Shown: positions 10,130 through 57,732 of the stretch, piece after piece | Numbering within the stretch: the first letter of the stretch is position 1 | How the letters are laid out: each line of letters begins with the position of its first letter | Assembly (NCBI GenBank): GCA_964537315.1 | Contig: CAZIAP010000002.1 | Location: forward strand, 107,237-171,236 | DNA length: 64,000 nucleotides | Direction of reading: 5' to 3' | Source of the DNA: an uncultured Gammaproteobacteria bacterium | Lineage (GTDB): Bacteria; Patescibacteriota; Microgenomatia; Levybacterales; GWA1-39-11 | Position numbers and translations under genes: made by a program | The notes under the pieces: model-generated | Databases searched by the model: none | What the model was told of the DNA's origin: nothing | The model's input: only the letters and a program-made list of their open reading frames with translations

Positions 10130-10810
10130 ATGAAAAACCTAATTGCTGCGAATTGGAAATCTAATAAAAGCTTACAAGAAGTAAAAGATTTCTTCGAAAA
10201 TCTTTCGGATAGATCTGAACAGTTAAGTGTCTCTAATACGGAAGTTCTTATTTGTCCGTCATTTCCTTTTCTCGAGGTAAGTAGGCAGATCATTAATGAC
10301 AAGAAACTCTCTGTTTTACTAGGTGCGCAGAACATCTCACCTTTTTCTCAAGGTGCGTATACAGGAGAGGTTGCAGCGAGCCAAGTAAGTGAACTTTTGG
10401 ATTTTGTCATAATCGGACATTCAGAAAGGCGTAGGTATTTTAAAGAAGATGAGGAGTTAATATCCAAGAAAGTGCAACAGGCACAGGAAGCCGGTCTTCG
10501 TGTAATACTCTGCGTTCAGGATGAACAGAACATGGTTTATGAAGGGGTGGATACAGTAGCTTACGAACCCATTGAAGCAATTGGAACAGGGCGTCCTGAT
10601 GAACCTGATCATGTAGCACAAGTACTGAGCCACATACACAATCAATATCCTTCAGTAAGACTACTTTACGGAGGAAGCGTTGATAAAAATTCTATTCATA
10701 ATTATACTAACATTCCTCTCATAAACGGCTTTCTAGTAGGAGGGGCAAGTTTAGAAGCTGAATCATTTCTTCATCTAATTAAAGCATGCGACACAAAAAA
10801 CTCTCAATAG
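10130..10810 (+). CDS. tpiA: Triosephosphate isomerase
   Basis: AANWKSNKS (the substrate-binding N/K pair), IIGHSERR (catalytic His loop), and the AYEPIEAIGTG catalytic Glu loop. Confidence 0.85.
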   Translation: MKNLIAANWKSNKSLQEVKDFFENLSDRSEQLSVSNTEVLICPSFPFLEVSRQIINDKKLSVLLGAQNISPFSQGAYTGEVAASQVSELLDFVIIGHSERRRYFKEDEELISKKVQQAQEAGLRVILCVQDEQNMVYEGVDTVAYEPIEAIGTGRPDEPDHVAQVLSHIHNQYPSVRLLYGGSVDKNSIHNYTNIPLINGFLVGGASLEAESFLHLIKACDTKNSQ

Positions 10811-11913
10811 CGGCAATCATTTTAGTCATAATTTTACTGCTCGGATTTCAGTATCTACGCATTGCAATCCCATTCTTATATGAACTATTCATAAAAAAAG
10901 ATATTGAGCTTGTCCAAGAAAAAGAAGAGTCGTTAAATATTTTACTTCTGGGTATTGGGGGTGGTACTCATGAAGGGCCTGAGCTTACTGATACCATAAT
11001 CCTTGCTAATATAAATCCAACAAAGAATGAAGTTAGTATGTTCTCTCTTCCTCGGGACTTATGGGTTCCGGAGCTGAAAGACCGAATTAACTCCGCATAT
11101 GCGATTGGGCAAAGTAAAGATAAAAAAGGCATGATATTGGCAAAAGCAGTTGTAGAAAAAGTGACCGGTCATCATGTTGATTACGTCTTTGTAATTGATT
11201 TTGCAGGATTTGTAAAAGGTGTAGATCATCTTGGTGGTATAGAAGTTGATGTTAAAAGAGCTTTTGATGATTATGAGTATCCTATTTCTGGAAAAGAGAA
11301 TGATCTTTGCGGATTAACAGAAGAAGATCTGGAGCAATTAGTCTCTACAGCTGAGGCAGAGTTAGGTGTTGATATTTTTCCTTGTAGATATAAACACCTC
11401 TCTTTTAAAAAAGGATTACAAGAAATGGACGGTAAAACAGCTTTAGAGTTTGTACGTTCGCGACATGCTACGGGTAATGAAGGATCTGATTTTGCCAGAT
11501 CTATGAGACAACAAGAAGTAATCGCTGCACTTCGCAATAAAATGCTTTCTTTAGGAATTTTATTAAACCCTGTTAAAGTTTTTGGCCTGATTAATATCGT
11601 GCAGGAACACACAAACACAGATATTAAAAAAGAAGAATATGATGACTTTATTAAACTAGCACGAAAATTTGAGAATGCTCAAGTGAAGAGTCATATTATT
11701 ACAATGACTGATGAGGCTTCTGAAAAATATGGATTATTGATTAATCCTCCTATTTCACAGGAGTATGGGTATAAATGGGTTTTAATTCCTAGAAAAGGAA
11801 ACGGAGAGTTTTCAGAGATTAAGGAATATATTGACTGTGTTGAAAATGGTAATTTGTGTGAAATTACAGCAAATGGGATAATAGTTGCTTCCGAAATTGA
11901 GAAAAATAATTAG
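10786..11913 (+). CDS. LytR-CpsA-Psr (LCP) family cell-wall glycopolymer ligase
   Basis: N-terminal TM followed by LNILLLGIGGGTHEGPELTDTIILANINPTKNEVSMFSLPRDLWV, the LCP domain signature. Includes conserved Arg and Asp residues. Confidence 0.8.
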   Translation: MRHKKLSIAAIILVIILLLGFQYLRIAIPFLYELFIKKDIELVQEKEESLNILLLGIGGGTHEGPELTDTIILANINPTKNEVSMFSLPRDLWVPELKDRINSAYAIGQSKDKKGMILAKAVVEKVTGHHVDYVFVIDFAGFVKGVDHLGGIEVDVKRAFDDYEYPISGKENDLCGLTEEDLEQLVSTAEAELGVDIFPCRYKHLSFKKGLQEMDGKTALEFVRSRHATGNEGSDFARSMRQQEVIAALRNKMLSLGILLNPVKVFGLINIVQEHTNTDIKKEEYDDFIKLARKFENAQVKSHIITMTDEASEKYGLLINPPISQEYGYKWVLIPRKGNGEFSEIKEYIDCVENGNLCEITANGIIVASEIEKNN

Positions 11914-15663: not shown

Positions 15664-15704
15664 ACAAGCTATTGTACATATTTAATTCGAAAATAACAAT
15701 AATT

Positions 15705-20600: not shown

Positions 20601-20629
20601 TCTTGTATTGTAAATGTTTATAAGTCAGA

Positions 20630-28787: not shown

Positions 28788-29909
28788 TTACAGTAAGAAT
28801 AAAAGTAATCCTCCGATTACAGTTATAACAACTGCCCCTCCTACTCCCAGCATAGTACCTATTGACCCTGGAGGTGCAATAGTGGGAATAGGGGCTTCAG
28901 TAGGAGCAATAGGTGTTTGTGCAGATGGAGTTGAATTGCCTGTATTCGCACTTACTATTACTGTCTGCGTACAAGCTGTACTGGAATCACCGTCATTATC
29001 AGTGAAAACAACCGATAAATTATAAGTGTTAGCAGTTGTATATGTATGACTTTGTTGAATGTTGGCAGACGGTGAACCTAAGCCTTCTGTAACATCAATA
29101 ACCTGTCCATCCCCAAAGTTAAATGTAGCTTTTACTACTTGTCCGTCAGTATCATTGCCTTGAGCGGTGAGTTGAGTTATAAGAGGTGCTGCTCCACTAG
29201 CAGGTATTATCTGAAGGCTTGAACAGACAGGTAACTTATTAGGAGATTTGGTTGGAGTAGGGTTTGAAGTAGGCGAAGCTGGTGGAGAAGCTGAGATTGT
29301 AGGACGACTTGTAGGTGTAGGGCTCGTTGTTCCTCCTGCAAGTATTGTTATAGAAGTTGGCGCTGCATTTACGAGCACATTTTCACCTGGACCATCATTA
29401 GTAGATATTGATAGAACTTGAGTAGATCCTGGGAAATCAAAAGAAATCTCCGTTGGAGTATCTGTTACCTCTAAAGCTTCGAGTTCGATAGTAGCAACTT
29501 TAAATGGTTGAGTAATGTCACCAGAAGGATCATAACCTGTATCTATAATCTTATTTATTCCGAACTCTACACTGGCAGTATTTTCAGTAATATCTGGCCC
29601 TGATAAAGTCGTAGATATATTCTGTGGATCAGGAGTAATCTGAGTTATTATAATTTTACTCGGATCAAACTGTAGTGAAAATTTAATAAAGGATGGGATA
29701 TTTTGACCGGGATCGAGCATTACGTCTACAGTAAACGACTCTCCTACAGCAACAGAGGGCTTTGAGGATACTAATGTAAGGTTGCTCGAAGGTGCTGCAC
29801 TACTTCTTAGGTCTTGTTGTTGCTTCACAAAATAAAGAGTTAAAGGTATAGTTACTAAAAGAAGCGCCAAAACTCCTATCAAAAAAAACTGTTTACTGGT
29901 GAATTTCAT
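28788..29909 (-). CDS. Surface protein with cohesin-like domain, PKD domain, Pro/Thr/Ser linker and C-terminal TM
   Basis: N-terminal signal anchor carrying the shared IPLTLYFVKQQQDLRSSAA motif. Cohesin-like beta-sandwich (VAVGESFTVDVMLDP...LQFDPSKIII). PKD-like FNFGDG...HTY. C-terminal helix GAVVITVIGGLLLFLL. Confidence 0.5.
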   Translation of the reverse strand: MKFTSKQFFLIGVLALLLVTIPLTLYFVKQQQDLRSSAAPSSNLTLVSSKPSVAVGESFTVDVMLDPGQNIPSFIKFSLQFDPSKIIITQITPDPQNISTTLSGPDITENTASVEFGINKIIDTGYDPSGDITQPFKVATIELEALEVTDTPTEISFDFPGSTQVLSISTNDGPGENVLVNAAPTSITILAGGTTSPTPTSRPTISASPPASPTSNPTPTKSPNKLPVCSSLQIIPASGAAPLITQLTAQGNDTDGQVVKATFNFGDGQVIDVTEGLGSPSANIQQSHTYTTANTYNLSVVFTDNDGDSSTACTQTVIVSANTGNSTPSAQTPIAPTEAPIPTIAPPGSIGTMLGVGGAVVITVIGGLLLFLL

Positions 29910-30006
29910 ACAAAAGTCTTGCTGATATTAGCGTAGTGGAAATGATAAGTGAAGTCAATAATGTAAGAAATCAGTAAAATGTCCTTGGTTTGAGACTGTA
30001 AAGGTC

Positions 30007-30036
30007 TTGACAATACAACGTTTTCTATTGTATATT
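30007..30036 (+). promoter_or_regulatory. Sigma70-like promoter of groES (TTGACA-N18-TATATT) with a weak CIRCE-like half-site downstream
   Basis: TTGACA at 30007-30012 and TATATT at 30031-36. TTAGCAGTC (30035-43) is 8/9 to the CIRCE left arm, but the right arm AAATGACAA is a poor match. Confidence 0.4.
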
Positions 30037-30070
30037 AGCAGTCATATAGATTAAATGACAAAAAAGAGTT

Positions 30071-30376
30071 ATGGCAAAATCTACAAAAACAATGACCCCA
30101 CTTTTCGGAAATGTTTTAATCAAACCACTAGAAGCAGAAGAAAAAACTGCAGGTGGTATATATTTACCTGACACAGCAAAAGAGAAGCCTCAGGTCGGTG
30201 AAGTTATGGCAGTTGGAAAAGGATCATGGGATGAGGATGGAGAAAAAAGGATTCCTATGGAAGTATCCGTTGGTCAAAAGGTTATGTATAAAAAATGGGG
30301 TGGAAATGAGGTAAAAGTAGGTAATGAAGAGTGGACAATCGTAGATCAGAAAGATATATTGGCAATAGTAAGTTAG
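30071..30376 (+). CDS. groES: Co-chaperonin GroES
   Basis: 101 aa. Shows the GroES mobile-loop and roof-hairpin pattern (KPLEAEEKTAGGIYLPDTAKEKPQVGEVMAVG). Confidence 0.9.
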   Translation: MAKSTKTMTPLFGNVLIKPLEAEEKTAGGIYLPDTAKEKPQVGEVMAVGKGSWDEDGEKRIPMEVSVGQKVMYKKWGGNEVKVGNEEWTIVDQKDILAIVS

Positions 30377-30391
30377 AAATATAGAAATAAA

Positions 30392-30414
30392 ATGATAAGT
30401 CTTTTACTTATCAT
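30392..30414 (+). other. Perfect 9-bp stem / 5-nt loop hairpin between groES and groEL, followed by T-rich tract
   Basis: ATGATAAGT-CTTTT-ACTTATCAT read directly, followed by TATTTACTTTAATTTTTAT. Confidence 0.4.
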
Positions 30415-30435
30415 TATTTACTTTAATTTTTATAG

Positions 30436-32094
<1,659 letters not shown>

Positions 32095-32256
32095 AATAAT
32101 CCACCTTCACAAACCAACTCTCCTAGCTTTTAATTTTCACTTGTTTCACTTTATATGTGCAGAACCATTATAATGGTAGACCACACTTGAAGTAGAATTA
32201 AATATTTTCTTATAATGACTTTTTGTTTACTTCAATATTCGTAGTACAATACATCT

Positions 32257-33051
32257 ATGGTTGATAGTCATTGTCATTTAAATTTTCATAAGTTTGCAGA
32301 CGACGTAGATGAGGTTGTACAACGTGCAACTGAGTCAGGAGTAAGCAAGATCGTAAATGTCGGAACTCAAATCAGCTCCAGTAGGGAGGCAATAATGCTT
32401 GCTGAGAAATTTGATTCATGCTTTGCAGTAGTAGGAATTCATCCTCATCATGCAGATAAAGTTGATAACGATTGGGTTAAAGATTTAGAAAGCCTTATAT
32501 CAAACGAAAAAGTAATCGCAGTTGGAGAGTGCGGACTTGATTACTTTTCTTATCAATCCAACGGTATAGTTGACCCGAAAGTTCAAAAAAAGGTATTTGA
32601 GACGCAGATTGAAATTGCATATAGATCAAAACTCCCGCTTGTGATTCATAACCGACACGCGGGAAAAGAGATCATTGAGATTCTCTCGTACTATAAATCT
32701 TCATTGTTAAATCTCCCAGGGATGTTTCACTGTATGTCAGGTGATCTCGATCTATTGCATCAGGTGTTAGATCTAGGATTTTATGTAGGTTTTGACGGTA
32801 ATATAACTTATCCAAAATTAGCTCCTGGCGAGACGGTGCATTTACAAGATTTGGTACGTGCCGCCCCTTTGGATAAAATCTTAATTGAAACGGATAGTCC
32901 ATATCTAACTCCCATTCCACATCGAGGTAAAAGAAATGAGCCAAAAAATGCTATAATAATTGGTGAATTTATTGCTAGTTTAAAAGGAGTCTCATTAGAA
33001 GAAGTTGATTTCGTTACTACGAAGAATTTTTCAACAGTGTTTTCCATATAA
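32257..33051 (+). CDS. tatD: TatD-family metal-dependent hydrolase/DNase
   Basis: MVDSHCHLNF, GEcGLDY, HNRHA, and GFYVGFDGNITY; the TatD signature. Confidence 0.85.
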   Translation: MVDSHCHLNFHKFADDVDEVVQRATESGVSKIVNVGTQISSSREAIMLAEKFDSCFAVVGIHPHHADKVDNDWVKDLESLISNEKVIAVGECGLDYFSYQSNGIVDPKVQKKVFETQIEIAYRSKLPLVIHNRHAGKEIIEILSYYKSSLLNLPGMFHCMSGDLDLLHQVLDLGFYVGFDGNITYPKLAPGETVHLQDLVRAAPLDKILIETDSPYLTPIPHRGKRNEPKNAIIIGEFIASLKGVSLEEVDFVTTKNFSTVFSI

Positions 33052-33059
33052 ATTTAATT

Positions 33060-34559
33060 ATGCACGCTTTTTTTGATCGCATTTTCTATACATATCCCGT
33101 AAAAACTAGGAGAAGTCTTGAAATTCTTCCTCCATTAGTATCACTTACTTTAATCAGTATGCCTGTTTGGGGAGCGTTGCTCTTTCCAGTACAGCTTGCA
33201 TACTTTATTATTTTTTTTGATATTTACTTTTTGTGGAAGTCGATCTATTTAGTAGTTACAGCATTTATTTCAGCACGAAAGATTAAAAAAACTGAAGAGG
33301 TGAACTGGGTGAAAAAGGCTGAGAAGCTTGAACACTTTAAAGATACCCACCACGTCATAATTATTCCTAGTTATACAGAGAGCGCTTCAAAACTTTCCCG
33401 AACCATTGAAACACTTAAAAATCAAACTTTTCCCCGAGAGCGTATCCATGTTTATTTAGCTCTCGAAAAAAGGGAAGAAAATGTTGAAGAAAAAGCTGAG
33501 AACTTAGTGGCACTATTCAAAGGTTCATTTGGTACATTTTCATACACGCTACATCCTGATGTAGAAGGAGAGGTAAAGGGAAAATCTTCTAACCAGGCAT
33601 ATGCGGTGAAGTATGCATACAAAGATTTGATAGAAAAAAGAGGTTTAGATATTAATTATATGACTGTGTCTTCTGTAGATGCAGATGCTATATTTGATCC
33701 TCAGTACTATGCAAATCTTGCTTATCACTTTCTTGTCTCCTCGAATCCACACCTTCATATATGGCAATCAGCAACAGTATTTTATAACAACTTCTGGGAA
33801 ATCCCAGCTTTTACGCGCGTTATGACCTTTTTTAGTGGTCTGTGGCGTACGGCTTTATTGGTTCAAGGACTCCGTCTTCTGCCTCACTCTACCTATTCAT
33901 TATCACTCAAACTTTTGCATGACATTGGGTATTGGGACACAGATGTAATCCCGGAAGATTATAGAATCTTCTTTAAAGCGTTTTATAAAACGAAGGGACA
34001 AGTATCAGTCGAACCGATATTTCTAAAAACTTCTTTGGATGCTGCTCAGTCACATACTTATCGCGCAAGTCTTATGAATAAATATAATCAAGAACGAAGA
34101 TGGGCTTGGGGTGTGTCTGATGATGCATTATACCTAAAGTGGTGGTTTACAGTTCCTGGAGTCCCGTTTATAAAAAAAACATACCTGATGTATTATGTAT
34201 TGCTTGACCACATACTTTGGCCAGTTGCTTGGTTCCTGATTACTGTCTCTGCAAACTTAGTCGTGCTAATTAATCCAATATTTTCGCGTACTAGCTTAGG
34301 GTATTATCTCCCACAGTTATCAGGATTTATAATTACTCTTACACTTGTGTCACTTATTGCAATGATGTACATCGATTACACAATACATAGGTACAAACAT
34401 TATAAAAAGCCCTCTTTATGGAGAAGACTTTTATTTCCTTTAGAGTTTATTGTAATGCCTGTTGCAGGATTTTTTCTGTCTGCACTACCTGCACTAATTT
34501 CTCATTTGCAACTATTCTTTGGTAAGCGATTGGAATATAAAGTAACAGAAAAAGTGTAA
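33060..34559 (+). CDS. Processive membrane GT2 glycosyltransferase (cellulose/chitin/hyaluronan-synthase-like)
   Basis: Two N-terminal and about four C-terminal TMs flank a cytoplasmic GT-A domain. Contains DAD (SSVDADAIFD) and the processive-synthase QxxRW motif (QERRWAWG). Confidence 0.65.
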   Translation: MHAFFDRIFYTYPVKTRRSLEILPPLVSLTLISMPVWGALLFPVQLAYFIIFFDIYFLWKSIYLVVTAFISARKIKKTEEVNWVKKAEKLEHFKDTHHVIIIPSYTESASKLSRTIETLKNQTFPRERIHVYLALEKREENVEEKAENLVALFKGSFGTFSYTLHPDVEGEVKGKSSNQAYAVKYAYKDLIEKRGLDINYMTVSSVDADAIFDPQYYANLAYHFLVSSNPHLHIWQSATVFYNNFWEIPAFTRVMTFFSGLWRTALLVQGLRLLPHSTYSLSLKLLHDIGYWDTDVIPEDYRIFFKAFYKTKGQVSVEPIFLKTSLDAAQSHTYRASLMNKYNQERRWAWGVSDDALYLKWWFTVPGVPFIKKTYLMYYVLLDHILWPVAWFLITVSANLVVLINPIFSRTSLGYYLPQLSGFIITLTLVSLIAMMYIDYTIHRYKHYKKPSLWRRLLFPLEFIVMPVAGFFLSALPALISHLQLFFGKRLEYKVTEKV

Positions 34560-36017
34560 ATGATGAAAAACCTTCTAGGATCGTGGAAACCATATCCTCA
34601 TTTTTTTATATTAAGTGCAGTATTGCTATTTACGTTTCTTAGAATGCCTTCATTAATAGAGCCGTACTGGTACGGAGACGAAGGAATATACGCAGTTATA
34701 GGACAATCATTGCGTGATGGAGCTGTTCTATATAAAGATATTTGGGATAATAAGCCACCGGTACTATATCTTCTTTATGCAGCTGTAAATGGAGAACTCT
34801 TATGGATTAAAGGAATGTCTTTAATTTTTGGGGCAGCTACCGTATTTGCAATCTTTAAACTTGCTGAAAAACTCTTAAAAGATAAACGTGCGGTTATTGT
34901 ATCTGTAACTGTGTTCACTTTTCTTTTTGGTTTGCCCATATTAGAGGGAAATATCGCAAATGCAGAAAATTTTATGTTGCTTCCTTTAAGCGTAGCATTT
35001 TATTTTATTTTGCGTAACGGATCTGTAACTACGTATATTGCAGCAGGTTTATTAATCTCTCTTGCAGCGATGATAAAAATAGTGGCGGTATTTGATCTTG
35101 CTGCAATATTGTTTATCATGGCTCTGATGCAGATAAAAGACAAGCGAGCTATTAAATCTGGCTTAATCAGTTTTATCAACAATAAAAAAACTTTGGGTTT
35201 TATTTTAGGTGTACTATTTATCCCTTTACTAGTATTTATATATTATTTAAACATACAGGCCGTACAGTATTTACTTTCATCAGTCTTCACAAATAACGTA
35301 GGTTACGTGGGGGTAAATAATTATTTTCTTTTTCCATTAGGATTAATTTTATTAAAAATTATAATATTGGTTGCTGCTCTAACGACAATTTTTATATTTC
35401 GCAAAGCACTCTCTAGAGAAGAAATTGTAATATACTCCTGGCTAGCATTTGGATTATTTAGTGTTTTTTTTTCAGATAGACCGTATATTCATTACCTCTT
35501 AATGGGTTTACTGCCTTTTTCATTACTAGTTGGATATCTTATCAAACGCCCTAGAACTGTCTCAGTCTTAGTGATTGCCGTAATTATTGTGCTCTCTCAA
35601 GCATATTTTTCTGTCTATAAAAAAAATATCAAGTATTATATAAATTTTGCCGAGTATGTATTCGCAGATAAATCATTTCGAGAATATACAGCCTTCTTTG
35701 ATAGAAATTCTGTAATTGATTATGATATTGCAGGAATAATGAGAACAATCATGGATAAGCAGGACTCAGTATATTACTGGAGTGACAGTGCTCAACTTTA
35801 CTTGCTTACCGGAGTTCGTCCTTTTACTAAGTATATTGTGGCGTATCATAATCTGGGCTATGAGGAGGCACTAGCTCAAACATCAAGAGAAATTCAAGAG
35901 AAAAGGCCTAAATATATTGTATCAACCAAAAATATGCCAATTTACTTTAATCTTTTAGATGAATATGAATTAAAATATACTATAGAATCAGCACGAATTT
36001 ATGAAAAACGCCTTTAA
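34560..36017 (+). CDS. GT-C-fold membrane glycosyltransferase (ArnT/PMT-like)
   Basis: First-loop DE motif (EPYWYGDEGIYAV) and about 11 TMs. The start abuts the GT2 stop (TAA-ATG). Confidence 0.55.
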   Translation: MMKNLLGSWKPYPHFFILSAVLLFTFLRMPSLIEPYWYGDEGIYAVIGQSLRDGAVLYKDIWDNKPPVLYLLYAAVNGELLWIKGMSLIFGAATVFAIFKLAEKLLKDKRAVIVSVTVFTFLFGLPILEGNIANAENFMLLPLSVAFYFILRNGSVTTYIAAGLLISLAAMIKIVAVFDLAAILFIMALMQIKDKRAIKSGLISFINNKKTLGFILGVLFIPLLVFIYYLNIQAVQYLLSSVFTNNVGYVGVNNYFLFPLGLILLKIIILVAALTTIFIFRKALSREEIVIYSWLAFGLFSVFFSDRPYIHYLLMGLLPFSLLVGYLIKRPRTVSVLVIAVIIVLSQAYFSVYKKNIKYYINFAEYVFADKSFREYTAFFDRNSVIDYDIAGIMRTIMDKQDSVYYWSDSAQLYLLTGVRPFTKYIVAYHNLGYEEALAQTSREIQEKRPKYIVSTKNMPIYFNLLDEYELKYTIESARIYEKRL

Positions 36018-36354
36018 TACCTTACTTTCTGATAATATTATAAAAGTATCATCCGGAGCTTCATTTTTGCTTCTCTTGATTGCCACATTGCTAATAGCAT
36101 TTTTTTATCAAAAGCTTCCTCCTTATATTCCTTTCTTTAATAGTTTACCGTGGGGAACAGAGAGGTTGTTTTCATCTGTAATTGTGGTTTTTCTTCCATT
36201 AATTTTCCTTTTGGTTTTAATTATCAATAATGCACTTAGCGCGTACGTATATGAAAAACATGCTTTGATTGCCAGAATGATTTCATTTAATGGTTTACTT
36301 GTGATTCTTTTGGGATTTCTTGCCTACTTACAAATTGTACTGTTAGTATTATGA
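36001..36354 (+). CDS. Small 3-TM membrane protein
   Basis: 117 aa and hydrophobic. Sits between the GT-C gene and the GT4 phosphotransferase gene. Confidence 0.35.
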   Translation: MKNAFNTLLSDNIIKVSSGASFLLLLIATLLIAFFYQKLPPYIPFFNSLPWGTERLFSSVIVVFLPLIFLLVLIINNALSAYVYEKHALIARMISFNGLLVILLGFLAYLQIVLLVL

Positions 36355-36357
36355 CCT

Positions 36358-37416
36358 ATGCTTAACACGCTAATAATATCGCTCGTTACCAGTTTTGTGA
36401 TTATGATTATTCTGACCCCTTTGGCTATAAAGGTGATAAAGAGACTAAAATTGATTGACGACCCTACCACACACAAGCATCCAGCAATTATTCACTCTCG
36501 TCCGATTCCCAGGGGAGGAGGACTGCCTATTTATATCTCATTAGTAAGTAGTATGATAATTTTTCTTCCTTTAACACCAATTTTTATTGGAGTAATAGCA
36601 GCAGGGTTACTGGTAGTTGGAGTAGGATTGCTTGACGATAGGTATGATATCTCACCATATGTTCGTTTTTTTATGAACATTGTTTCGGCAGTGTTAGTTG
36701 TTTGGTCTGGTGTAACAATTCCTTTTATTACACATCCATTAGGAGGAATATTGAGGTTTGATGATTTTAGTGTTACTTTAGGTACATTCTCAGTTGTGTT
36801 ACCATTGGCACATATTCTTGCAGTAGTTTGGATTATTTGGGTTATGAACATGCTGAACTGGAGTAAAGGAGTAGACGGACAAATGCCGGGTATTGCAGCA
36901 ATATCCGCAATTATTATTGGTATCGCAGCTCTTAGGTTTGGAATAATTGATGAGTCAAGTAGCAATACAGCGATATTTTCATTTATTATCGCTGGAACGG
37001 CGCTTGGATTTTTGGTATATAATTTTTATCCAGCACGAATATTTCCAGGATATAGCGCAACTATTTTAGGTTTTGCAATAGGTGTGGCTTCTATACTTTC
37101 TAGTGTAAAGCTTGCGACGGCGCTACTTGTTATGGGAATACCTGCTGCTGATGCATTATTTACAATTGCCAGAAGACTAGCGGCTAAAAAGTCTCCATTC
37201 TGGCATGACAAAGGACACTTGCATCATTTATTGCTTAACCTTGGCATGAGTCAGCGTACCATCGCGTTGTTTTATTGGGGTATGTCCTTTATTTTAGGTC
37301 TTGCTGCACTTACACTTTCGAGTAAAGGAAAAATATTTGCTATAATACTGGTGGTAGTATTGGTAATTGGGTTTATCTTGACATTACGTTTTTTGACGAA
37401 TAAAGAGCGAAAATGA
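36358..37416 (+). CDS. Polyprenyl-phosphate sugar-1-phosphate transferase (MraY/WecA family, GT4 'glycosyl transferase family 4')
   Basis: 10-TM profile, LLDDRYDISP, NMLNWSKGVDGQMPGIAAI (the NxxNxxDGxDGL equivalent), and a HLHHLL His-rich C-terminal motif. Cannot distinguish MraY from WecA on sequence alone. Confidence 0.75.
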   Translation: MLNTLIISLVTSFVIMIILTPLAIKVIKRLKLIDDPTTHKHPAIIHSRPIPRGGGLPIYISLVSSMIIFLPLTPIFIGVIAAGLLVVGVGLLDDRYDISPYVRFFMNIVSAVLVVWSGVTIPFITHPLGGILRFDDFSVTLGTFSVVLPLAHILAVVWIIWVMNMLNWSKGVDGQMPGIAAISAIIIGIAALRFGIIDESSSNTAIFSFIIAGTALGFLVYNFYPARIFPGYSATILGFAIGVASILSSVKLATALLVMGIPAADALFTIARRLAAKKSPFWHDKGHLHHLLLNLGMSQRTIALFYWGMSFILGLAALTLSSKGKIFAIILVVVLVIGFILTLRFLTNKERK

Positions 37417-38357
37417 AGCACTCTCACATTTTTTATCTTCTCAAGCTACTCCGTCCACGCCAGTGGATTAAGAACCTTGCCTTGTTTGCGGGAGTTACTT
37501 TCAGCGGTCAACTTTTTGAATCTGAAGCGCTAGTGAGGGTAGGGATCGCGTTTATTGCGTTTTGTTTTCTTTCATCGGCTACTTATATCCTCAATGATGT
37601 GCTTGATATAAAAAAGGACAGGTTGCATCCTTTCAAAAGAAACAGACCTCTTGCAAGTGGTAAAGTAAGCCCTATTGAAGCAGTAATAATTTTCGTGGTA
37701 CTGCTTTCTTCTTCTTTAACACTTGCTTATCAGCTCGAAGGGATGTTTATTGTACTTGCAGTAGTTTATCTTGCTTTGCAGGTCTCCTACTCAGTGTTAT
37801 TTAAAGGTGTAGTAATTTTTGATATTTTCTTTATTGCTTCCGGTTATATTTTACGTGTGCTAGCAGGAGGAGAAATTGTAAATTATCATATTTCAGTGTG
37901 GTTATTACTTACTACTGTCTCACTTTCACTCTTTTTAGCTGTTGGTAAACGTAGGTCTGAGTTAACCTTACTTAAAAACGTAAAAGCAAGCAAAATTCAG
38001 GAGATTCGTCGGAGTCTTTCACATTATTCAGAAAATCTACTTGATGCGTATACTGCCATATTTGCTACTACGGCCGTTATGTTTTATACGATGTTTACGT
38101 TTTTAGAACATCCACGTGGAATTCGTATTAATATAGAACTCTTCCTACCAGAGTTTTTGCCTTATTACTTACAAAGAAAATGGTTGATGATCACAATTTT
38201 GCCGGTAATTTACGGAATCATGCGTTATATGCAGGACATTTATGAAAAAAGTGAGGGTGAAAGTCCTGACCGTGTACTATTGGCTGATAAGGCACTACTG
38301 GCGTCAGTAATTTCATGGGTAATTTTAGTAATCGTAATTATTTACTTTATTGGGTGA
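37413..38357 (+). CDS. UbiA-family prenyl-phosphate phosphoribosyltransferase (decaprenyl-phosphate 5-phosphoribosyltransferase-like)
   Basis: NDVLDIKKDRLHPFKRNRPLASGKVSP matches the DPPR-synthase (Rv3806c-type) motif ND..D...DR.HP.KR.RP.A.G.V.P. Eight TMs. Confidence 0.7.
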   Translation: MKHSHIFYLLKLLRPRQWIKNLALFAGVTFSGQLFESEALVRVGIAFIAFCFLSSATYILNDVLDIKKDRLHPFKRNRPLASGKVSPIEAVIIFVVLLSSSLTLAYQLEGMFIVLAVVYLALQVSYSVLFKGVVIFDIFFIASGYILRVLAGGEIVNYHISVWLLLTTVSLSLFLAVGKRRSELTLLKNVKASKIQEIRRSLSHYSENLLDAYTAIFATTAVMFYTMFTFLEHPRGIRINIELFLPEFLPYYLQRKWLMITILPVIYGIMRYMQDIYEKSEGESPDRVLLADKALLASVISWVILVIVIIYFIG

Positions 38358-39216
38358 CTTCTTTAACATATCTTCCGCTTACCCATCCTGATTTTCCATC
38401 CGGTAAAGTAATTTTGTACCATCCGCTCTGTTCGTCTGTATAAGGAAATATCTCTCCTGGCTCTACTGTCGTAACTTCAGCAGTTGCAGTAGATGGACCT
38501 GTCCGTACTCGCAAAAATCCTACTCCAGTATTCTCAATCTCAACTCGTGGAGTAGTATCCTCAGGTTCTGTTTCACTTGGAGTTGGTGTGGGAGTAGGAC
38601 TTACTTTTTCCAGATTACTAGATGTGTTTTCTGCTGACTCTGTTCCTAAGTAGGCGGAGATGATTAGCTTGTACTGCGGAACAGTACGAACTCTAATTGT
38701 TTTTTTAGCAAATCCTTCTTTTTGAATCTCTACTTCATGTTCGGAGGGGGAAATAGATTCTAAATGAAATGGACTTGTTCCTCTCGGAGTACTGTTGACT
38801 GCGACCATTGCAGAGTCTGGGATTGTTCCAACAAATAACTGCGGTTCTTGCGATGAAGTTTTCTCAAGAGTCAGAACGTATGCGCTGGCAAGAGACCCTG
38901 GAAGAAAGGTACGTTCCACTGCAGTAAGTACACCGGGTTCAACTTTGACTTTTACGACAAAGGGGGTAAACTGTGTATCGTTTGGAACTATTTTTACTGT
39001 ATATTCCCCTTGTACAATGGTATTGTTTTGCTCACATTTACATAAAGGGGTCTCGCCAAGCAACTTATCATCAAGATATACCTGACTTGCAATGTTTGCG
39101 GTAACCTGCAATGCTCCCTGACCGGAAGGGCGGAGTGTTTGAATTACCTGTGTGAGTAAGAATAGTCCGACAAGAATTAAAATCACCGCCAGAACTAACA
39201 GAAGATTACGTCTCAT
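38347..39216 (-). CDS. Secreted/anchored protein with PEGA-like domain and C-terminal bacterial SH3 (SH3b) domain
   Basis: N-terminal TM. Segment VTANIASQVYLDDKLLGETP (PEGA-like). C-terminal SGWYKITLPDGKSGWVSGRYV matches the SH3_3 pattern. Confidence 0.5.
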   Translation of the reverse strand: MRRNLLLVLAVILILVGLFLLTQVIQTLRPSGQGALQVTANIASQVYLDDKLLGETPLCKCEQNNTIVQGEYTVKIVPNDTQFTPFVVKVKVEPGVLTAVERTFLPGSLASAYVLTLEKTSSQEPQLFVGTIPDSAMVAVNSTPRGTSPFHLESISPSEHEVEIQKEGFAKKTIRVRTVPQYKLIISAYLGTESAENTSSNLEKVSPTPTPTPSETEPEDTTPRVEIENTGVGFLRVRTGPSTATAEVTTVEPGEIFPYTDEQSGWYKITLPDGKSGWVSGRYVKEVTQ

Positions 39217-39273
39217 GCGTATTCACTATCATACCAAACTTTTCTATTACGGCTCAAGGAAAATTTTTACTAA

Positions 39274-40707
39274 TTACGGTTTGCTGTTACCAGCTAAACG
39301 AGGAAACAGACCTGGCTGTGAAGAAACTAATGGTGCAGAATATTGGTCAAGGATATTTTCCGCTGTACTTGGCATAAATGGTTGTAGATCAAAAGCAATT
39401 TGAGCGATACTTTCAATATATGGATCCAATACCTTGGATAGCTCATCTTCTTCAAGTTTCCATGGAGCATCATTGTTAATTTGTTTATCTGTTTCAGATA
39501 TTCGTTTCCAAATATCAGCTAAAGCCTTGTCAAACGAGTATTTATTTAGGTTATCTGTTACATCTTGGGAAAATTTTGTTACTTTAATGCCTCTTTTATT
39601 CACTTTTTCACATAAACGAGCAACTCGCGCGGTTAAGTTTCCAAGGCCGTTAGCTAGGTCAGCAGTATAAACTTCTCGCAGTCTTCTTTCTGAAAAATCT
39701 CCGTCTGATGCAGACGGAATTTCTCGTAAAAAATAATATCTCAGTGCATCAACACCATATCCGTCGATCATTTCTATTGGATCAATAACATTTCCCAATG
39801 TCTTACTCATTTTTTTACCGTCCACTGTAAAGTAACCGTGTACAAATATTTCTTTAGGAGACTTTAATCCTGCGGATTTCAGAAAAGCTGGCCAATAAAC
39901 AGCATGGAAGCGAGTTATACCTTTGCCTATTATATGAAGGTCAGCTGGCCACCATTTGTTATAGTTATCATCGTCATATGCAAATCCTATTCCACTTTGG
40001 TAAATGTTGAGTGCATCGAACCACACATACATCCTCTGCGTATCATCTCCTGGAACTGGCACTCCCCAGTTTTTTGCTCTTTCGTTTGAGCGAGAAATAC
40101 TGATATCTTGCAGACCATTTCTAACAAAAGAGAGCATCTCATTTTTACGTGATGTAGGAGTTATTTTAAGTGTATCAGACTTAATTAACTCTTCAATATA
40201 TGATTGATATTTAGACAGCCTGAAAAAGTAATTTTCTTCTGTAACTTCTTCCAGAGCTTTTCCGGGATGCTCAAAACACTCGCCTTTCTCATCTAGTTCT
40301 GACGGCTCGTAAAATTGCTCACACCCAACGCAGTATAAGCCAGAGTACGATTTTTTATATATATCTCCATTGTTATCACAGAGTTCCCATAACTTTTGCG
40401 AAGACTTGTGGTGTTGGGGGTTACTGCCTTTTTGGAACACATCAAATCTTACGTCAAGGGACTTTGCTAATTTTTGAAAAAGTTCACTATTTTCGTCAAT
40501 GAATGTTTGAACATCTTTGCCTACATTTTCTGCTGCCTGTACATTTTTTATCGCGTTTTCATCAGAGCCGGATAGTAAGGTTACTTCGTCTCCAAGCAAT
40601 TTTCTGTAACGTCTTATTACATCTGCTTGAACAAACTCTAGAGCATGTCCTACATGTGGTTTTGCGTTTACATAAGGGATTGCAGTTGTAAGATAATACT
40701 TGCTCAT
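39274..40707 (-). CDS. metG: Methionyl-tRNA synthetase (short form)
   Basis: MSKYYLTTAIPYVNAKPHVGH (HIGH motif) and KMSKTLGN. Start at the internal ATG giving MSKYYL. Confidence 0.9.
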   Translation of the reverse strand: MSKYYLTTAIPYVNAKPHVGHALEFVQADVIRRYRKLLGDEVTLLSGSDENAIKNVQAAENVGKDVQTFIDENSELFQKLAKSLDVRFDVFQKGSNPQHHKSSQKLWELCDNNGDIYKKSYSGLYCVGCEQFYEPSELDEKGECFEHPGKALEEVTEENYFFRLSKYQSYIEELIKSDTLKITPTSRKNEMLSFVRNGLQDISISRSNERAKNWGVPVPGDDTQRMYVWFDALNIYQSGIGFAYDDDNYNKWWPADLHIIGKGITRFHAVYWPAFLKSAGLKSPKEIFVHGYFTVDGKKMSKTLGNVIDPIEMIDGYGVDALRYYFLREIPSASDGDFSERRLREVYTADLANGLGNLTARVARLCEKVNKRGIKVTKFSQDVTDNLNKYSFDKALADIWKRISETDKQINNDAPWKLEEDELSKVLDPYIESIAQIAFDLQPFMPSTAENILDQYSAPLVSSQPGLFPRLAGNSKP

Positions 40708-40762
40708 AGATGTGTTGTATTGTATCAAAAAAAAAGACACATTTCTTTAGTTTGAGGCTAGC

Positions 40763-41464: not shown

Positions 41465-43408
41465 ATGATGGATGGATTTAATCATCTAGTTTCTTCTTTT
41501 TTCTCATCTTCCAAAAACATGGCTGGAATGATTGTGATTTTAATAATTGCAATCGCAGTTCCTGTCACGTTAGGTCTTATCAAACAGAATCAGGATAATC
41601 GGCAGGAGGCTGCTACTACTTACAGGCCTGGAACAGCAGCAGAAATTGCGCAGTGTAAACAAGGGTGTAACGGCTTATCAAGCTGGAGCAAGAATGGATG
41701 TTTAACTAGTTGTGAAGGATTACAAGTACCAGTTAGCGATGGTTCTGGTTCATCAAGTACAAAAAAAGAGAATGGTGAGCGGTGTAATACAAATACTGAT
41801 TGTAAAAGTTCTCAGTGTACTACAGCTACTTACTGTGGAACAACAGCTAAATATTGTGTAGCAACCACATATTATCCCAATCGGAACGTAGCTTGTCCAG
41901 CTGGATCTGGAGGGTCATCAGATGCGTCATCTTGTACAGGCTCAACTAACAGGGGATACAATTGTGCTTGTACGTCCAATTCTCAGTGTTCTTCTGGTAG
42001 CTGTGGATATGTAGACTCACAATATAGTCAGTTGATAGGTAAAAAATGTCTTACCGGAACTAGTACTGCTCCTACATCTGCTCCCGCAGGTGGAGCTTCT
42101 GGTAACTTCTCATGTTCAATAAGCGCCAGACAGGCTACAATTATTACAAGTGGTGTGACTTCAGTTAATAACATTAGGGGGCAAGTTAATCCTTCAAATA
42201 ATACCGGAGGAAAATATAACAGAATACGATGGATATTAACACGTGGATCAACAACTGTGGTAGACGAACACTCGATTGGTAACACAAATAATCCAACAGA
42301 AAAGTATTTTAAGAGTCTTTCTGCAGGCACATATACTCTAAATGCAAGGTTTTATCCATTAGATGGCTCTGCAGCGTCTGTTTCTTGTGGTAGTAGTACT
42401 GTAACAATTTCATCTACAGGCAGTTTTGCTTGTACTATGAATGCGGGAGTAGAGTTGGGAAATGAAGTGTGGATGAAAGTAGATAAGCCTACAGGGGACA
42501 CAACGGGTTACGATAGAATCGTTTGGAGAATAGGAAATTCACTTGAAAAGCATACCAACGGTAATACAAACAATTTTACGATATCATCGTTTACAGGTGT
42601 TCCTTCTGGTACTCATAGGGCTTATGCTAATTTTTATTCTTCAAATGGAACAAAACCTTCTGAGTACTGTGGCGAGAAATGGGTGACTGTCGCTGCTGCA
42701 CCAACTAGTACTCCAACAAACACGCCTACGAAGACTCCAACAAATACGCCAACTGTAACAGTATCAGCTCCAGTGGGGGGGAATAATTCTACAGTGACAA
42801 GCACACCAACGAATACTCCTACTGCGACTAGCACTCCTACCAGAACCCCTACTACACCTGTAAATCCTACTGCGACTAGGACTCCTACTGCAACTCCAAC
42901 TACAAACCCTCAGCAAATGACATTGAAGTTGTCTGCCACTCTTCCGGGAATCGGGAGTGGAACTGGGAATAATGCCAATCCTAAACGTACTACACGAACG
43001 GGGTCAGTAGAGATCTATAATACTCAAAACGTCAAAGTAAAAGAAGGAGAGACAAGCTTTACATATCAAGGTGGCGTATACAGTGGAACTATTGAGATGA
43101 CTAACGCTCCTGCAGGTACATATTATGTAAAGATGAAATTTGATAACACGATCTTCCAGCAGTTGCCTGGTGTATATAACCTAACATTGGGAGCAAACAC
43201 GCTTCCTACTGTAGCGCTTGCTCCAGGTGATCTAAATCAGGACAATAACCTGAATATGCAGGACTACTCTATTTTTGTCAGCTGCTATGGCGAAAAAGAA
43301 TGCGAAGCTTCATCAAAGCAAATGTCTGACTTTAATGATGATGGGATAATTGATGGAATAGATTACAATATTTTGATCAGGTCATTTGCGATCAGATCAG
43401 GAGATTAA
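41465..43408 (+). CDS. Large secreted Cys-rich protein with tandem beta-sandwich repeats, Thr/Pro linker, Cna-B/CarboxypepD_reg-like domain and dockerin-like C-terminus
   Basis: Signal anchor with the shared VPVTLGLIKQNQDNRQEAA motif. Cys-rich module (about 28 Cys). Two roughly 100-aa internal repeats (NRIRWILTRG... and DRIVWRIGNS...). TPTNTPT linker. C-terminal duplicated D-x-N-x-D-G-x-I-D segments (DLNQDNNLNMQDYSIF, DFNDDGIIDGIDYNILIRSF). Confidence 0.55.
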   Translation: MMDGFNHLVSSFFSSSKNMAGMIVILIIAIAVPVTLGLIKQNQDNRQEAATTYRPGTAAEIAQCKQGCNGLSSWSKNGCLTSCEGLQVPVSDGSGSSSTKKENGERCNTNTDCKSSQCTTATYCGTTAKYCVATTYYPNRNVACPAGSGGSSDASSCTGSTNRGYNCACTSNSQCSSGSCGYVDSQYSQLIGKKCLTGTSTAPTSAPAGGASGNFSCSISARQATIITSGVTSVNNIRGQVNPSNNTGGKYNRIRWILTRGSTTVVDEHSIGNTNNPTEKYFKSLSAGTYTLNARFYPLDGSAASVSCGSSTVTISSTGSFACTMNAGVELGNEVWMKVDKPTGDTTGYDRIVWRIGNSLEKHTNGNTNNFTISSFTGVPSGTHRAYANFYSSNGTKPSEYCGEKWVTVAAAPTSTPTNTPTKTPTNTPTVTVSAPVGGNNSTVTSTPTNTPTATSTPTRTPTTPVNPTATRTPTATPTTNPQQMTLKLSATLPGIGSGTGNNANPKRTTRTGSVEIYNTQNVKVKEGETSFTYQGGVYSGTIEMTNAPAGTYYVKMKFDNTIFQQLPGVYNLTLGANTLPTVALAPGDLNQDNNLNMQDYSIFVSCYGEKECEASSKQMSDFNDDGIIDGIDYNILIRSFAIRSGD

Positions 43409-43454
43409 AGTAAAATACTGGATACAGAATACGGAATACAGTATACTAAAAACT

Positions 43455-44051
43455 ATGCCTAAGCGAACAGTTATATTGATCTTAGTTTTAACTATCTTAA
43501 CAGGAGTTTTGGTGTTTTTAGCGCTTAAGAATGAGCAGAGAACAGCACCTCAACAAGCTGGTGAAGGAGAAAGGATAACCGAAGATACAGCGCTGCCCGA
43601 GAAAACAGCAACTCTAACATTTGATCCTCAAATAATGGAAGCTATACCTTCAACCGCGTCAGCAAACACTGTTGATGTAGTACTCAATGCCAATGAGCAT
43701 ACTATTGATAGTGTTCAGCTCGAGATAGTTTATGACCCTGCTGATCTTTCTAATGTAACAGTGAGTGCACCGGAGAATAACATATTCGGTGGTCCAGGTA
43801 GCTATACTGTCATACCAATGCCTTCAGATCCTGCACTTGGTAGAGTTTCATTTGCAATGGGTATCAGTACTCAAGCTCAAGCAGTACAAGGTGCTGGTCC
43901 TGTAGCACGAATTTCATTCACGGTGAACCCATCAACTACAAAAGATGTTACTCAAATCCAGATCATGGATCGATCTATGATAGTTGAGACAAATAGTCAT
44001 GAAAGTGTTCTTGCGCCGGTTGATCCACTTACTATTAACATTATTCGGTAA
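43455..44051 (+). CDS. Secreted cohesin-like domain protein
   Basis: Signal anchor. The beta-sandwich segment ATLTFDP...VDVVLNANEHTIDSVQLEIVYDPADLSNVTV is cohesin-like. Start chosen at the ATG at 43455 (MPKRTV...). Confidence 0.45.
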   Translation: MPKRTVILILVLTILTGVLVFLALKNEQRTAPQQAGEGERITEDTALPEKTATLTFDPQIMEAIPSTASANTVDVVLNANEHTIDSVQLEIVYDPADLSNVTVSAPENNIFGGPGSYTVIPMPSDPALGRVSFAMGISTQAQAVQGAGPVARISFTVNPSTTKDVTQIQIMDRSMIVETNSHESVLAPVDPLTINIIR

Positions 44052-54463: not shown

Positions 54464-54464
54464 T

Positions 54465-56408: not shown

Positions 56409-56472
56409 ATTTCACCACTGGAAACCTACTTGTCTAGCAATCTGACCTCCCATTTGATAAAATGACTAGCGT

Positions 56473-57345: not shown

Positions 57346-57405
57346 AATCAGAATAAGGAAGCCCTCACACTTTATACATTCTACATAATACTTTATACTA
57401 GTTGT

Positions 57406-57732
57406 ATGCCTGCCCTGCTGTACCCTATTTTTCTATTGAAATTTTGGTATATCGATGCGACAAAGTTTTTTTTGCACGTTTACCGTGAACTATTTGTTTA
57501 TTGTTTGTCTCTTTTTTCTCTACCATTACTCATTCGTTCATTCTTCAGACCGGTTAAAAACGAGTACAGAAAGGACTTAGTATTGTTTTCTATTTTTTTC
57601 GGTATGGGGGTAAAATCTGTACTTATCAGTATATCTATCGCAATTATGCTGTTTCTATTACTTGTAGGCGTAATATTACTTATTAGTTTTTGGGCATTTC
57701 CTTACTTTGTCTATCAGCTATTAAGCTTATGA
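57406..57732 (+). CDS. Small 3-TM membrane protein
   Basis: 108 aa and hydrophobic. It overlaps the start of the following AAA+ gene, so its reality is uncertain. Confidence 0.3.
   Translation: MPALLYPIFLLKFWYIDATKFFLHVYRELFVYCLSLFSLPLLIRSFFRPVKNEYRKDLVLFSIFFGMGVKSVLISISIAIMLFLLLVGVILLISFWAFPYFVYQLLSL

Follow-up and report, generated by a model that had tools for sequence, protein, structure and literature searches.

Does a bacterium of the Patescibacteria, or candidate phyla radiation (CPR), make a lipid-linked pentose, and by which kind of pathway would it be used? The question is raised by a stretch of 64,000 nucleotides of contig CAZIAP010000002.1 (hereafter the window; low GC, about 37%), in which the gene for a UbiA-fold membrane protein overlaps that for a polyprenyl-phosphate phospho-sugar transferase (PNPT). 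An earlier note on this DNA had read the pair, together with the neighboring glycosyltransferase (GT) genes, as a pathway resembling mycobacterial arabinogalactan biosynthesis. Our analysis bears this reading out in part only. What the genes probably encode is the three-component pentofuranose glycosylation pathway, in a version that belongs to the core genome throughout the Levybacteria and shares its first enzyme with the mycobacterial synthesis of decaprenyl-phosphate-arabinofuranose (DPA).

The closest relatives of the window's genes were found in metagenome-assembled genomes labelled Candidatus Levybacteria, Levyibacteriota, or Patescibacteria. We compared four related genomes (L001-L004) and 80 metagenome contigs, in which the UbiA-fold protein shows 53-85% identity with that of the window. 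A scan of genome contigs yielded four close relatives, and the plasmid and chromid collection searched with tblastn comprised 72,556 records. Both open reading frames (ORFs) described in the earlier note (36358-37416 and 37413-38357) were present, and their 4-bp overlap was confirmed (ATGA, 37413-37416). Orthologs of 53-90% identity turned up, in an identical order, in more than 80 independent contigs; the ORFs are real genes rather than chance ORFs.

Assignment of the UbiA-fold protein

The 314-residue protein matched the Pfam UbiA model PF01040 (E = 9e-22) and two NCBIfam models of decaprenyl-phosphate phosphoribosyltransferase (DPPR synthase), NF008978 with 223.6 bits (cutoff 207) and NF008977 with 233.5 bits (cutoff 234). 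The other models of the UbiA superfamily (UbiA, MenA-type MqnP, CyoE, ChlG, and GGGP-type) gave at most 48 bits (best 47.6), far under their cutoffs. Its only relatives in the PDB were two cryo-EM entries of Mycobacterium tuberculosis Rv3806c (8j8j, E = 3.5e-38), to which residues 9-309 aligned with 35% identity. Twelve of the 13 substrate-contact residues that we checked were identical, the thirteenth, K208, being replaced by Arg. R14, K20, Y58, N61, D65, K75, R78, Q123, Y126, K131, Y145, and K179 correspond to R22, K28, Y70, N73, D77, K87, R90, Q135, Y138, K143, Y157, and K191 of Rv3806c, respectively, and most of the contact residues were invariant in alignment A2. In Rv3806c, Mg2+ and the ribose are bound by N73, D77, and Q135, the 5-phosphate by K28, Y70, and Y157, the pyrophosphate by a Lys/Arg cluster (R22, K87, R90, and K143, with Y138), and the lipid phosphate by K28, Y157, and K191; ordinary UbiA enzymes do not retain the sites that bind the phosphoribose (PMC10994848).

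Because the contact residues are kept and the other UbiA models remain at or below 48 bits, compared with 224-234 bits for the DPPR synthase models, the protein does not fall with the quinone/heme prenyltransferases. On homology and active-site conservation, we assign it as a polyprenyl-phosphate 5-phosphoribosyltransferase (PPPRS). The earlier note had arrived at the DPPR synthase family from the motif NDVLDIKKDRLHPFKRNRPLASGKVSP (residues 61-87 of the ORF), and the score above the NF008978 cutoff, the full-length alignment with Rv3806c, and the retained contact residues bear this out. The family assignment is not new, since a Levybacteria ortholog of 70% identity already bears the name DPPR synthase at NCBI; several orthologs are labelled '4-hydroxybenzoate polyprenyltransferase' by JGI pipelines. 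The best 120 database matches showed 64-90% identity, and homologs of PPPRS are widespread, occurring in Lactococcus, Bacteroidota, haloarchaea, and rhizobia.

A conserved five-gene block

The PPPRS gene closes a block with the order GT2, GT-C, 117-residue transmembrane (TM) protein, PNPT, PPPRS (Table 1). With a TatD gene in front and a convergent PEGA/SH3 gene behind, this order was invariant wherever the contig reaches (L001-L004 and the 80 metagenome loci) and held down to 53-55% UbiA identity. The PNPT gene lies immediately 5' of the PPPRS gene in all 65 loci with room for it, the two ORFs overlapping or nearly abutting. Likewise, the 485-residue GT-C was found in the PPPRS operon, two genes 5' of the PPPRS, in every locus that reaches its position, and in 63 of the 80 loci, all those whose contig extends to it, the gene for the 117-residue protein is set between those of the GT-C and the PNPT. 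Between Levybacteria genomes, the TatD-to-PEGA/SH3 block has been turned around as a whole with respect to metG and groES/groEL (L011-L090 compared with 28788-40740 of the window); in one genome group, it sits between groEL and metG in the orientation opposite to that of the window. The two orientations indicate an ancestral inversion whose breakpoints would lie exactly at the block edges. A promoter and terminator scan of 31900-39400 gave results at chance level only.

The earlier note had placed a processive GT2 and a GT-C enzyme upstream of the pair; the GT-C is borne out, and the GT2 carries motifs of processive synthases. The GT2 scored under the cutoff of PF00535 (20.9 bits, cutoff 23.3), matched PgaC weakly, and had no homolog in the PDB or in the plasmid collection. 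Its motifs P.Y.E, H.D...E..GKSSN, SS.DAD, VIPEDYR, and Q..RW.WG were invariant in 48 orthologs. Set between two N-terminal and about four C-terminal TM helices, as predicted here, they are the signature of processive membrane synthases.

The 485-residue protein had no match of its own in the Pfam scan. Its orthologs carry PF13231 (PMT_2), PF02366 (PMT), and PF27757; their annotated names are GT39 or phospholipid carrier-dependent glycosyltransferase. A loop-1 motif, YGDEG, is invariant. A Foldseek search with its AlphaFold2 (AF2) model (pLDDT 89.3) returned STT3, AglB, DPY19, ArnT, PglB, and PMT at the top, and AftA, EmbB, AftB, and AftD lower, with E values of 0.017 or worse. The modelled fold is that of a GT-C enzyme. 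The earlier note had pointed out that the Emb/Aft class is GT-C; the closer structural neighbors of the model are the oligosaccharyltransferases (OST), ArnT, and PMT rather than Aft or Emb.

The 117-residue protein had no Pfam or NCBIfam match. It has three TM helices by hydropathy and a conserved loop (PP..P..N..PWG..RL), and is a candidate flippase or accessory subunit.

At the edges of the block, tatD was always found 5' of the GT2 gene, also in the loci where the block runs the other way with respect to metG and groEL. It is probably a housekeeping gene that usually follows metG, and we left it out of the pathway. The PEGA/SH3b gene, which travels with the block, was present in 59 of the 80 loci and always adjoined the UbiA gene; in the window, the two are convergent and overlap by 11 bp. 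Its product, with the linker SPTPTPTPSETEPEDTTP, is possibly a wall-binding protein or a glycosylation target.

A divergent phosphotransferase

The PNPT matched PF00953 (Glycos_transf_4) with 91.8 bits (gathering score 27; E = 6e-26), the WecA model with 90 bits (cutoff 326), and the MraY model with 43.1 bits (cutoff 192). Its best tblastn matches were TagO-type proteins of Firmicutes (30-33% identity), one of which is encoded next to an LCP (LytR-CpsA-Psr) gene. The enzyme is therefore neither a bona fide MraY nor a WecA equivalog; a grouping with MraY would have spoken against the reading of the earlier note.

We aligned the PNPT to MraY structures with HMMER and to TagO-type proteins of Listeria and Priestia with MAFFT. 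It keeps D93-D94, D173 (the second Asp of the NxxNxxDGxDG motif), and H287-L-H-H. Lys170 stands in place of the first Asp of NxxNxxDGxDG in 70 of 71 orthologs. In all 71, Tyr232 takes the place of the MGD Asp, the motif there reading F-P-G-Y-S/G-A-T; we take this Asp to be the equivalent of D265 of Aquifex MraY. In the Aquifex enzyme, D265 is a Mg2+ coordination site (PMC4790310). The PNPT also carries two insertions relative to TagO and WecA. The two replacements may mark a subfamily that uses metal differently or acts on a different substrate. Of all that the locus shows, this K170/Y232 signature was the least expected.

No PNPT-PPPRS adjacency was found outside the CPR. A 'glycosyltransferase family 4 protein' encoded 5' of PPPRS in Marivivens was considered as a relative of the PNPT and rejected, as the two showed no similarity; it is presumably of the CAZy-GT4 type. 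The window also encodes a FemAB-family peptidyltransferase (7149-8177) and a MurJ-family flippase (25399-27045; 231.8 bits, cutoff 235.55), the latter most simply a lipid II flippase. By these two genes, the organism makes peptidoglycan with an interpeptide branch, so that another part of the genome should encode a canonical MraY.

A second cluster with homologs beside PPPRS genes in other phyla

An operon on the minus strand (11910-21919) encodes an oxidoreductase of the flavin adenine dinucleotide (FAD) type, three PMT_2-type GT-Cs, an extended short-chain dehydrogenase/reductase (SDR), a protein of the haloacid dehalogenase (HAD) fold, and a DUF2298/YYY protein. It is syntenic in relatives (L005-L008) at 47-51% identity, and PilN and PilO genes lie beside it. 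The inventory of the earlier note was right for the extended SDR and for five polytopic GT-C or YYY genes on this strand (5773-7152 besides the YYY and PMT_2 genes of Table 1). The LCP ligase that it listed is present as well and lies on the plus strand instead of the opposite one; its gene is convergent with the YYY gene in L005-L008 and in L104.

The SDR has intact TGGTGFLG and Y139xxxK motifs and is 40% identical (E = 7e-80) to a Halostagnicola SDR encoded beside a PPPRS. Among the best tblastn matches in plasmids and chromids, a PPPRS-type UbiA gene was found within 6 kb of the SDR homolog in nine of the 11 loci checked: four of haloarchaea (37-40% identity) and those of Streptomyces, Nonomuraea, Rhizobium CCGE531, Sinorhizobium NGR234, and Neorhizobium. 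The Rhizobium CCGE531 locus figures in the list of Kelly et al. as a candidate pentofuranose system with epimerases (PMC11127046). By this association, the SDR is a candidate epimerase of polyprenyl-phosphate-ribofuranose. The GalE-like extended-SDR subfamily that adjoins PPPRS genes in haloarchaea, Streptomyces, Nonomuraea, and rhizobia has no assigned reaction.

The FAD enzyme matched the Amino_oxidase, NAD_binding_8, and PRK07233 models. The suggestion that it resembles UDP-galactopyranose mutase (UGM) was dropped, since it has no GLF domain and its best PDB sequence matches cover only the dinucleotide-binding N-terminus of amino-acid oxidases. Homologs are encoded in operons of the type UbiA (HAD-fused)-DprE1-like-DprE2-like-SDR-FAD-GtrA in Burkholderia, Rhodobacteraceae, Rhizobium, and Agrobacterium (plasmids). 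These proteobacterial operons suggest a further modification of the lipid-linked pentose, and the FAD enzyme of the window is a candidate for such tailoring. Because the SDR and FAD subfamilies adjoin PPPRS genes in haloarchaea, actinomycetes, and proteobacteria, we tie the minus-strand cluster to the PPPRS block.

Of the remaining products, the PMT_2-type trio is syntenic in L005-L008; the middle enzyme (17231-18970) also matches PF02366, and two of the three gave matches to the Agl23 model TIGR03663 below its cutoff (40 and 20 bits, cutoff 126). The gene for the HAD-fold protein overlaps the SDR gene by 4 bp. All top PDB matches of its AF2 model (pLDDT 90.4) in Foldseek were HAD phosphatases of a generic kind, and sequence and profile searches of the PDB found nothing. 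A search of 1.84 billion proteins with the family profile returned only 284 representatives, restricted to the CPR. The protein is a weak candidate for the polyprenyl-phosphate-ribose-5-phosphate phosphatase.

Table 1. Coordinates of the PPPRS block, its flanking genes, and the second cluster in the window
Feature	Coordinates	Strand	Basis
PPPRS (DPPR synthase family, predicted), UbiA fold, 314 aa	37413..38357	+	NF008978, NF008977, Rv3806c alignment
Divergent TagO/WecA-like PNPT, 352 aa, about 10 TM	36358..37416	+	PF00953
Conserved membrane protein, 117 aa, 3 predicted TM helices	36001..36354	+	hydropathy, synteny
GT-C glycosyltransferase (GT39/PMT_2-like), 485 aa	34560..36017	+	ortholog Pfam, AF2 model, Foldseek
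Membrane-embedded GT2, processive-synthase motif set, 499 aa	33060..34559	+	PF00535 20.9 bits, motifs
TatD-family hydrolase	32257..33051	+	PF01026 E = 2.5e-79
Membrane-anchored PEGA + SH3b surface protein, Pro/Thr-rich linker	38347..39216	-	PF08308 PEGA, PF08239 SH3_3
FAD oxidoreductase, PRK07233/amine-oxidase family, 429 aa	20630..21919	-	NF005560 355 bits (cutoff 252)
Three tandem PMT_2-type GT-C glycosyltransferases	15705-17234, 17231-18970, 18921-20600	-	PF13231 E = 2.8e-15, 9.9e-11, 2.3e-10
Extended SDR, epimerase/dehydratase family, 348 aa	14617..15663	-	PF01370 E = 3e-45
HAD-fold phosphatase (putative), CPR-restricted, 194 aa	14036..14620	-	invariant D18xD20, S92, K131, D145-D147
DUF2298/Chlor_Arch_YYY polytopic membrane protein, GT-C-like, 710 aa	11910..14042	-	PF10060 E = 2.4e-96; TIGR03662 505.8 bits
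LCP glycopolymer-to-peptidoglycan ligase	10786..11913	+	PF03816 E = 5.6e-35; TIGR00350 102 bits

Proposed pathway

By homology, the PPPRS would transfer, at the cytoplasmic face, the phosphoribosyl group of phosphoribosyl pyrophosphate (PRPP) to polyprenyl phosphate to give polyprenyl-phosphate-ribofuranose-5-phosphate. The 5-phosphate would then be removed by the HAD-fold protein or another phosphatase, and the product could be epimerized or undergo oxidation-reduction through the extended SDR, perhaps aided by the PRK07233-type FAD enzyme. The lipid-linked pentose would next be flipped across the membrane, and GT-Cs would add the pentofuranose to a surface glycan outside, the first candidate being the 485-residue GT-C and the second the PMT_2/YYY set. 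The backbone that accepts it, or the lipid-linked primer of that backbone, probably comes from the GT2 and the divergent PNPT, and the LCP protein could attach the polymer to peptidoglycan. The lipid carrier is presumably C55 rather than the C50 of mycobacteria.

We scanned the ORFs of at least 150 residues in the 64-kb window with Pfam and NCBIfam and found no DprE1 (VAO-type, FAD_binding_4), no classical-SDR DprE2, no PAP2 phosphatase, no galactan genes (UGM/GlfT), and no GtrA or SMR protein; the operon itself holds no MATE, SMR, or GtrA gene. The earlier note had remarked that DprE1/DprE2 equivalents were not obvious, and this agrees with the scan; the Rv3807c-like PAP2 and DprE1/E2-like genes that it had in view as further parts were likewise missing among these ORFs. 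Its arabinogalactan-like pathway thus keeps the shared first enzyme, the TagO/WecA-like PNPT, the GT-Cs, and the LCP ligase, and lacks DprE1/E2, PAP2, and UGM/GlfT in the window. Because DprE1/E2 are absent from the window, ribofuranose or an epimer made by the SDR is a more likely sugar than arabinofuranose made through DprE1/E2.

Several observations weigh against the proposed pathway. The SDR/FAD/GT-C cluster lies 16-23 kb from the UbiA gene. Two lower-scoring SDR matches, in a Mesorhizobium cluster disrupted by an insertion sequence and in Azospirillum, had no UbiA gene nearby, and the association of the FAD enzyme is dominated by one type of proteobacterial operon and fails in Embleya. 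The phosphatase and the flippase of the pathway can be named only as predicted candidates. The assignment of the HAD-fold protein is weak because the fusions of its family are with GT-B enzymes (Glycos_transf_1), never with UbiA; one such fusion (L104, 6696-8354) lies beside DUF2298/YYY, LCP, TIM, and UvrD genes. The HAD family profile also showed no significant match to the HAD-IB protein of Lactococcus or to the N-terminal domain of the fused PPPRS of Vibrio. The building of a lipid-linked primer by the PNPT, which the earlier note had proposed, is possible and not assured: the enzyme is TagO/WecA-like, and its role as a primer synthase is doubtful because the MGD Asp and the first Asp of NxxNxxDGxDG, two canonical acidic residues, are replaced. 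Finally, because all the CPR relatives sampled belong to one clade, their co-occurrence within the CPR could be inherited synteny.

Comparison with known systems

Systems composed of a PPPRS, a phosphatase, a flippase, and a GT-C have been experimentally established (Kelly et al. 2024, PMC11127046). In Citrobacter youngae O1/O2, they comprise a fused PPPRS-PRP (ORF15), a MATE flippase (ORF14), a GT-C of family GT136 (ORF12), and, optionally, an SDR epimerase (ORF13) (PMC11127046). This three-component pentofuranose glycosylation, rather than arabinogalactan synthesis as such, is the known system closest to the window. Both have a UbiA-fold PPPRS encoded beside a GT-C and the logic of a polyprenyl-phosphate-ribofuranose that would be made inside and used outside; the window also has an extended-SDR partner, whose homologs sit in PPPRS loci (one of them in the supporting information of Kelly et al.), and a HAD-fold phosphatase candidate. 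In contrast to the Citrobacter system, the PPPRS of the window carries no fused PRP domain, its operon holds no flippase gene of the MATE, SMR, or GtrA type, and the components are split over the two distant clusters. The PPPRS also shares its operon with a processive-type GT2 and the divergent PNPT, and the GT-C is GT39/PMT_2-like. The genes hold a conserved position in the core genome of a monoderm of the CPR, whereas those of Citrobacter belong to a variable O-antigen locus.

With the DPA pathway of M. tuberculosis, the window shares a PPPRS related to Rv3806c over the whole protein (12 of 13 contacts, Arg in place of K208), GT-Cs as downstream users, and an LCP ligase in the genome. It differs in having, among the ORFs scanned, no DprE1/DprE2, PAP2 phosphatase, GtrA-like Rv3789, or galactan genes, and its GT-Cs are not detectably Emb/Aft-like. 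The PNPT, for its part, resembles TagO and WecA in its PF00953 match, its TM helices, the DD pair, D173 of DGxDG, and HxHH, and departs from them in Lys170, Tyr232, the insertions, and scores under the WecA and MraY cutoffs.

Two further groups of loci are of interest. On haloarchaeal megaplasmids (Halostagnicola larsenii, Haloterrigena, and Natronococcus), the order is SDR, PPPRS, PHP phosphoesterase, LPG-synthase-TM protein, and GT-C. The PPPRS is about 34% identical to that of the window, the extended SDR 37-40% over the full length, and GT-Cs are adjacent, but the haloarchaeal SDR and PPPRS genes adjoin each other in divergent orientation, and the PHP protein is the candidate for the phosphatase. 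As these loci are known from their genes alone, they provide an association with the window, not a function. The Lactococcus plasmid pLLF27D carries a hypothetical polytopic protein, a PPPRS, a HAD-IB phosphatase, and GtrA, with LCP in the vicinity. As in the window, the host is a monoderm, the PPPRS (about 290 residues, 32-33% identity) and the HAD protein (about 190 residues) stand alone, and an LCP gene is nearby; unlike the window, the locus is compact, plasmid-borne, and provided with a GtrA flippase. The HAD and polytopic proteins of pLLF27D had no detectable sequence similarity to those of the window, and the GT-Cs of the haloarchaeal, Lactococcus, and Bacteroidota PPPRS loci showed none at the BLAST level to the window GT-Cs.

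Alternative interpretations

The most serious alternative, which we regard as unlikely, is protein O-glycosylation by the GT39/PMT-like GT-Cs, with type IV pilins, the PEGA/SH3b protein, or S-layer-like proteins as targets, as in the arabinosylation of pilin by TfpW in Pseudomonas aeruginosa. The GT-Cs do match PMT and PMT_2, and their orthologs are named GT39, but PMT_2 matches are generic for GT-C enzymes. PilN/PilO genes flank the second cluster and a surface protein rich in Pro and Thr is invariably convergent with the UbiA gene, yet no pilin gene adjoins the UbiA operon. A precedent for PPPRS-dependent glycosylation of pilin is cited in PMC11127046; against this alternative, the processive-type GT2 and the PNPT in the operon and the LCP gene by the second cluster point to a polymer.

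A bolder and rather doubtful possibility is that Levybacteria make a peptidoglycan-linked pentofuranose wall polymer convergent with mycobacterial arabinan synthesis. The Lys/Tyr PNPT would then be translationally coupled to the PPPRS, the PRK07233-type FAD enzyme and the extended SDR would replace DprE1/DprE2, and the product might be a pentofuranose epimer new to bacterial walls.

That the window encodes a true mycobacterial-type route seems improbable. In that case, DPPR would be converted to DPA, Emb/Aft-like GT-Cs would polymerize the arabinofuranose on a WecA-primed, galactan-type linker, and LCP would ligate the product to peptidoglycan. The first enzyme is common to both routes, a TagO/WecA-like PNPT gene overlaps that of the PPPRS, and GT-Cs are numerous and accompanied by LCP; however, the PNPT is without canonical catalytic Asp residues, and the modelled GT-C is nearer to OST, ArnT, and PMT than to Aft and Emb. 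DprE1, a classical-SDR DprE2, PAP2, and UGM/GlfT are missing from the window. The FAD oxidoreductase and the SDR could in principle stand in for DprE1/DprE2, but the PRK07233-type enzyme co-occurs with DprE1/E2-like genes in the proteobacterial operons and is thus not simply their substitute.

We consider it very improbable that the gene order reflects inherited clade synteny only, the PPPRS making a lipid-linked phosphoribose for an unrelated use (a membrane glycolipid or the head group of a lipoglycan) and its neighbors acting independently. It is true that all the CPR loci recovered, with at least 53% UbiA identity, form one clade, that the block lies among the housekeeping genes groEL, tatD, and metG, and that the HAD 'Rosetta' fusions point to GT-B partners instead of UbiA. 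However, the block has outlasted an inversion that separates it from both flanks, and its ORFs overlap or abut. Moreover, the partner is a GT-C in every characterized or predicted PPPRS system, and unrelated phyla also show the linkage of SDR and FAD homologs with PPPRS.

That the UbiA-fold protein is just another prenyltransferase of the aromatic, heme, quinone, or ether-lipid type, as its Pfam UbiA match and the JGI labels might suggest, can be dismissed as extremely unlikely in view of the model scores given above and of the conservation of all the PRPP-specific residues of Rv3806c (Y70, Q135, Y138, K143, and Y157).

Other genes of the window

The rest of the window holds chaperones, ClpB paralogs, a subtilase, a sortase, a cohesin/dockerin pair, and similar genes. 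A dockerin-containing protein (647 residues) and a cohesin-containing protein (221 residues) are encoded next to each other at 41465-44051, an unusual pair for the CPR. At 51224-60122, genes for two ClpB-like AAA+ chaperones, one of 1079 residues with a long N-terminal extension, surround those for a subtilase (54465-56408) and DnaJ, with HrcA-GrpE-DnaK upstream.

Significance

The enzyme family, its wide distribution, and the concept of the pathway are already known, and orthologs of the PPPRS are annotated. We found no paper linking DPPR synthase with the CPR or Patescibacteria. What is new is the core operon architecture throughout the Levybacteria, the association across phyla of specific SDR and FAD-oxidoreductase subfamilies with PPPRS, and a PNPT with an altered catalytic signature. 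Patescibacteria live attached to other cells, and to our knowledge almost nothing is known experimentally about their envelope glycans. The present results extend the three-component concept of 2024 to a new superphylum and flag two enzyme subfamilies, the GalE-like SDR and the PRK07233 FAD oxidoreductase, which accompany PPPRS genes across archaea, actinomycetes, and proteobacteria and to neither of which a reaction has been assigned. A conserved PPPRS operon tied to ten polytopic or accessory genes leads to the testable prediction that these organisms would make a polyprenyl-phosphate-linked pentofuranose donor that is used outside the membrane.

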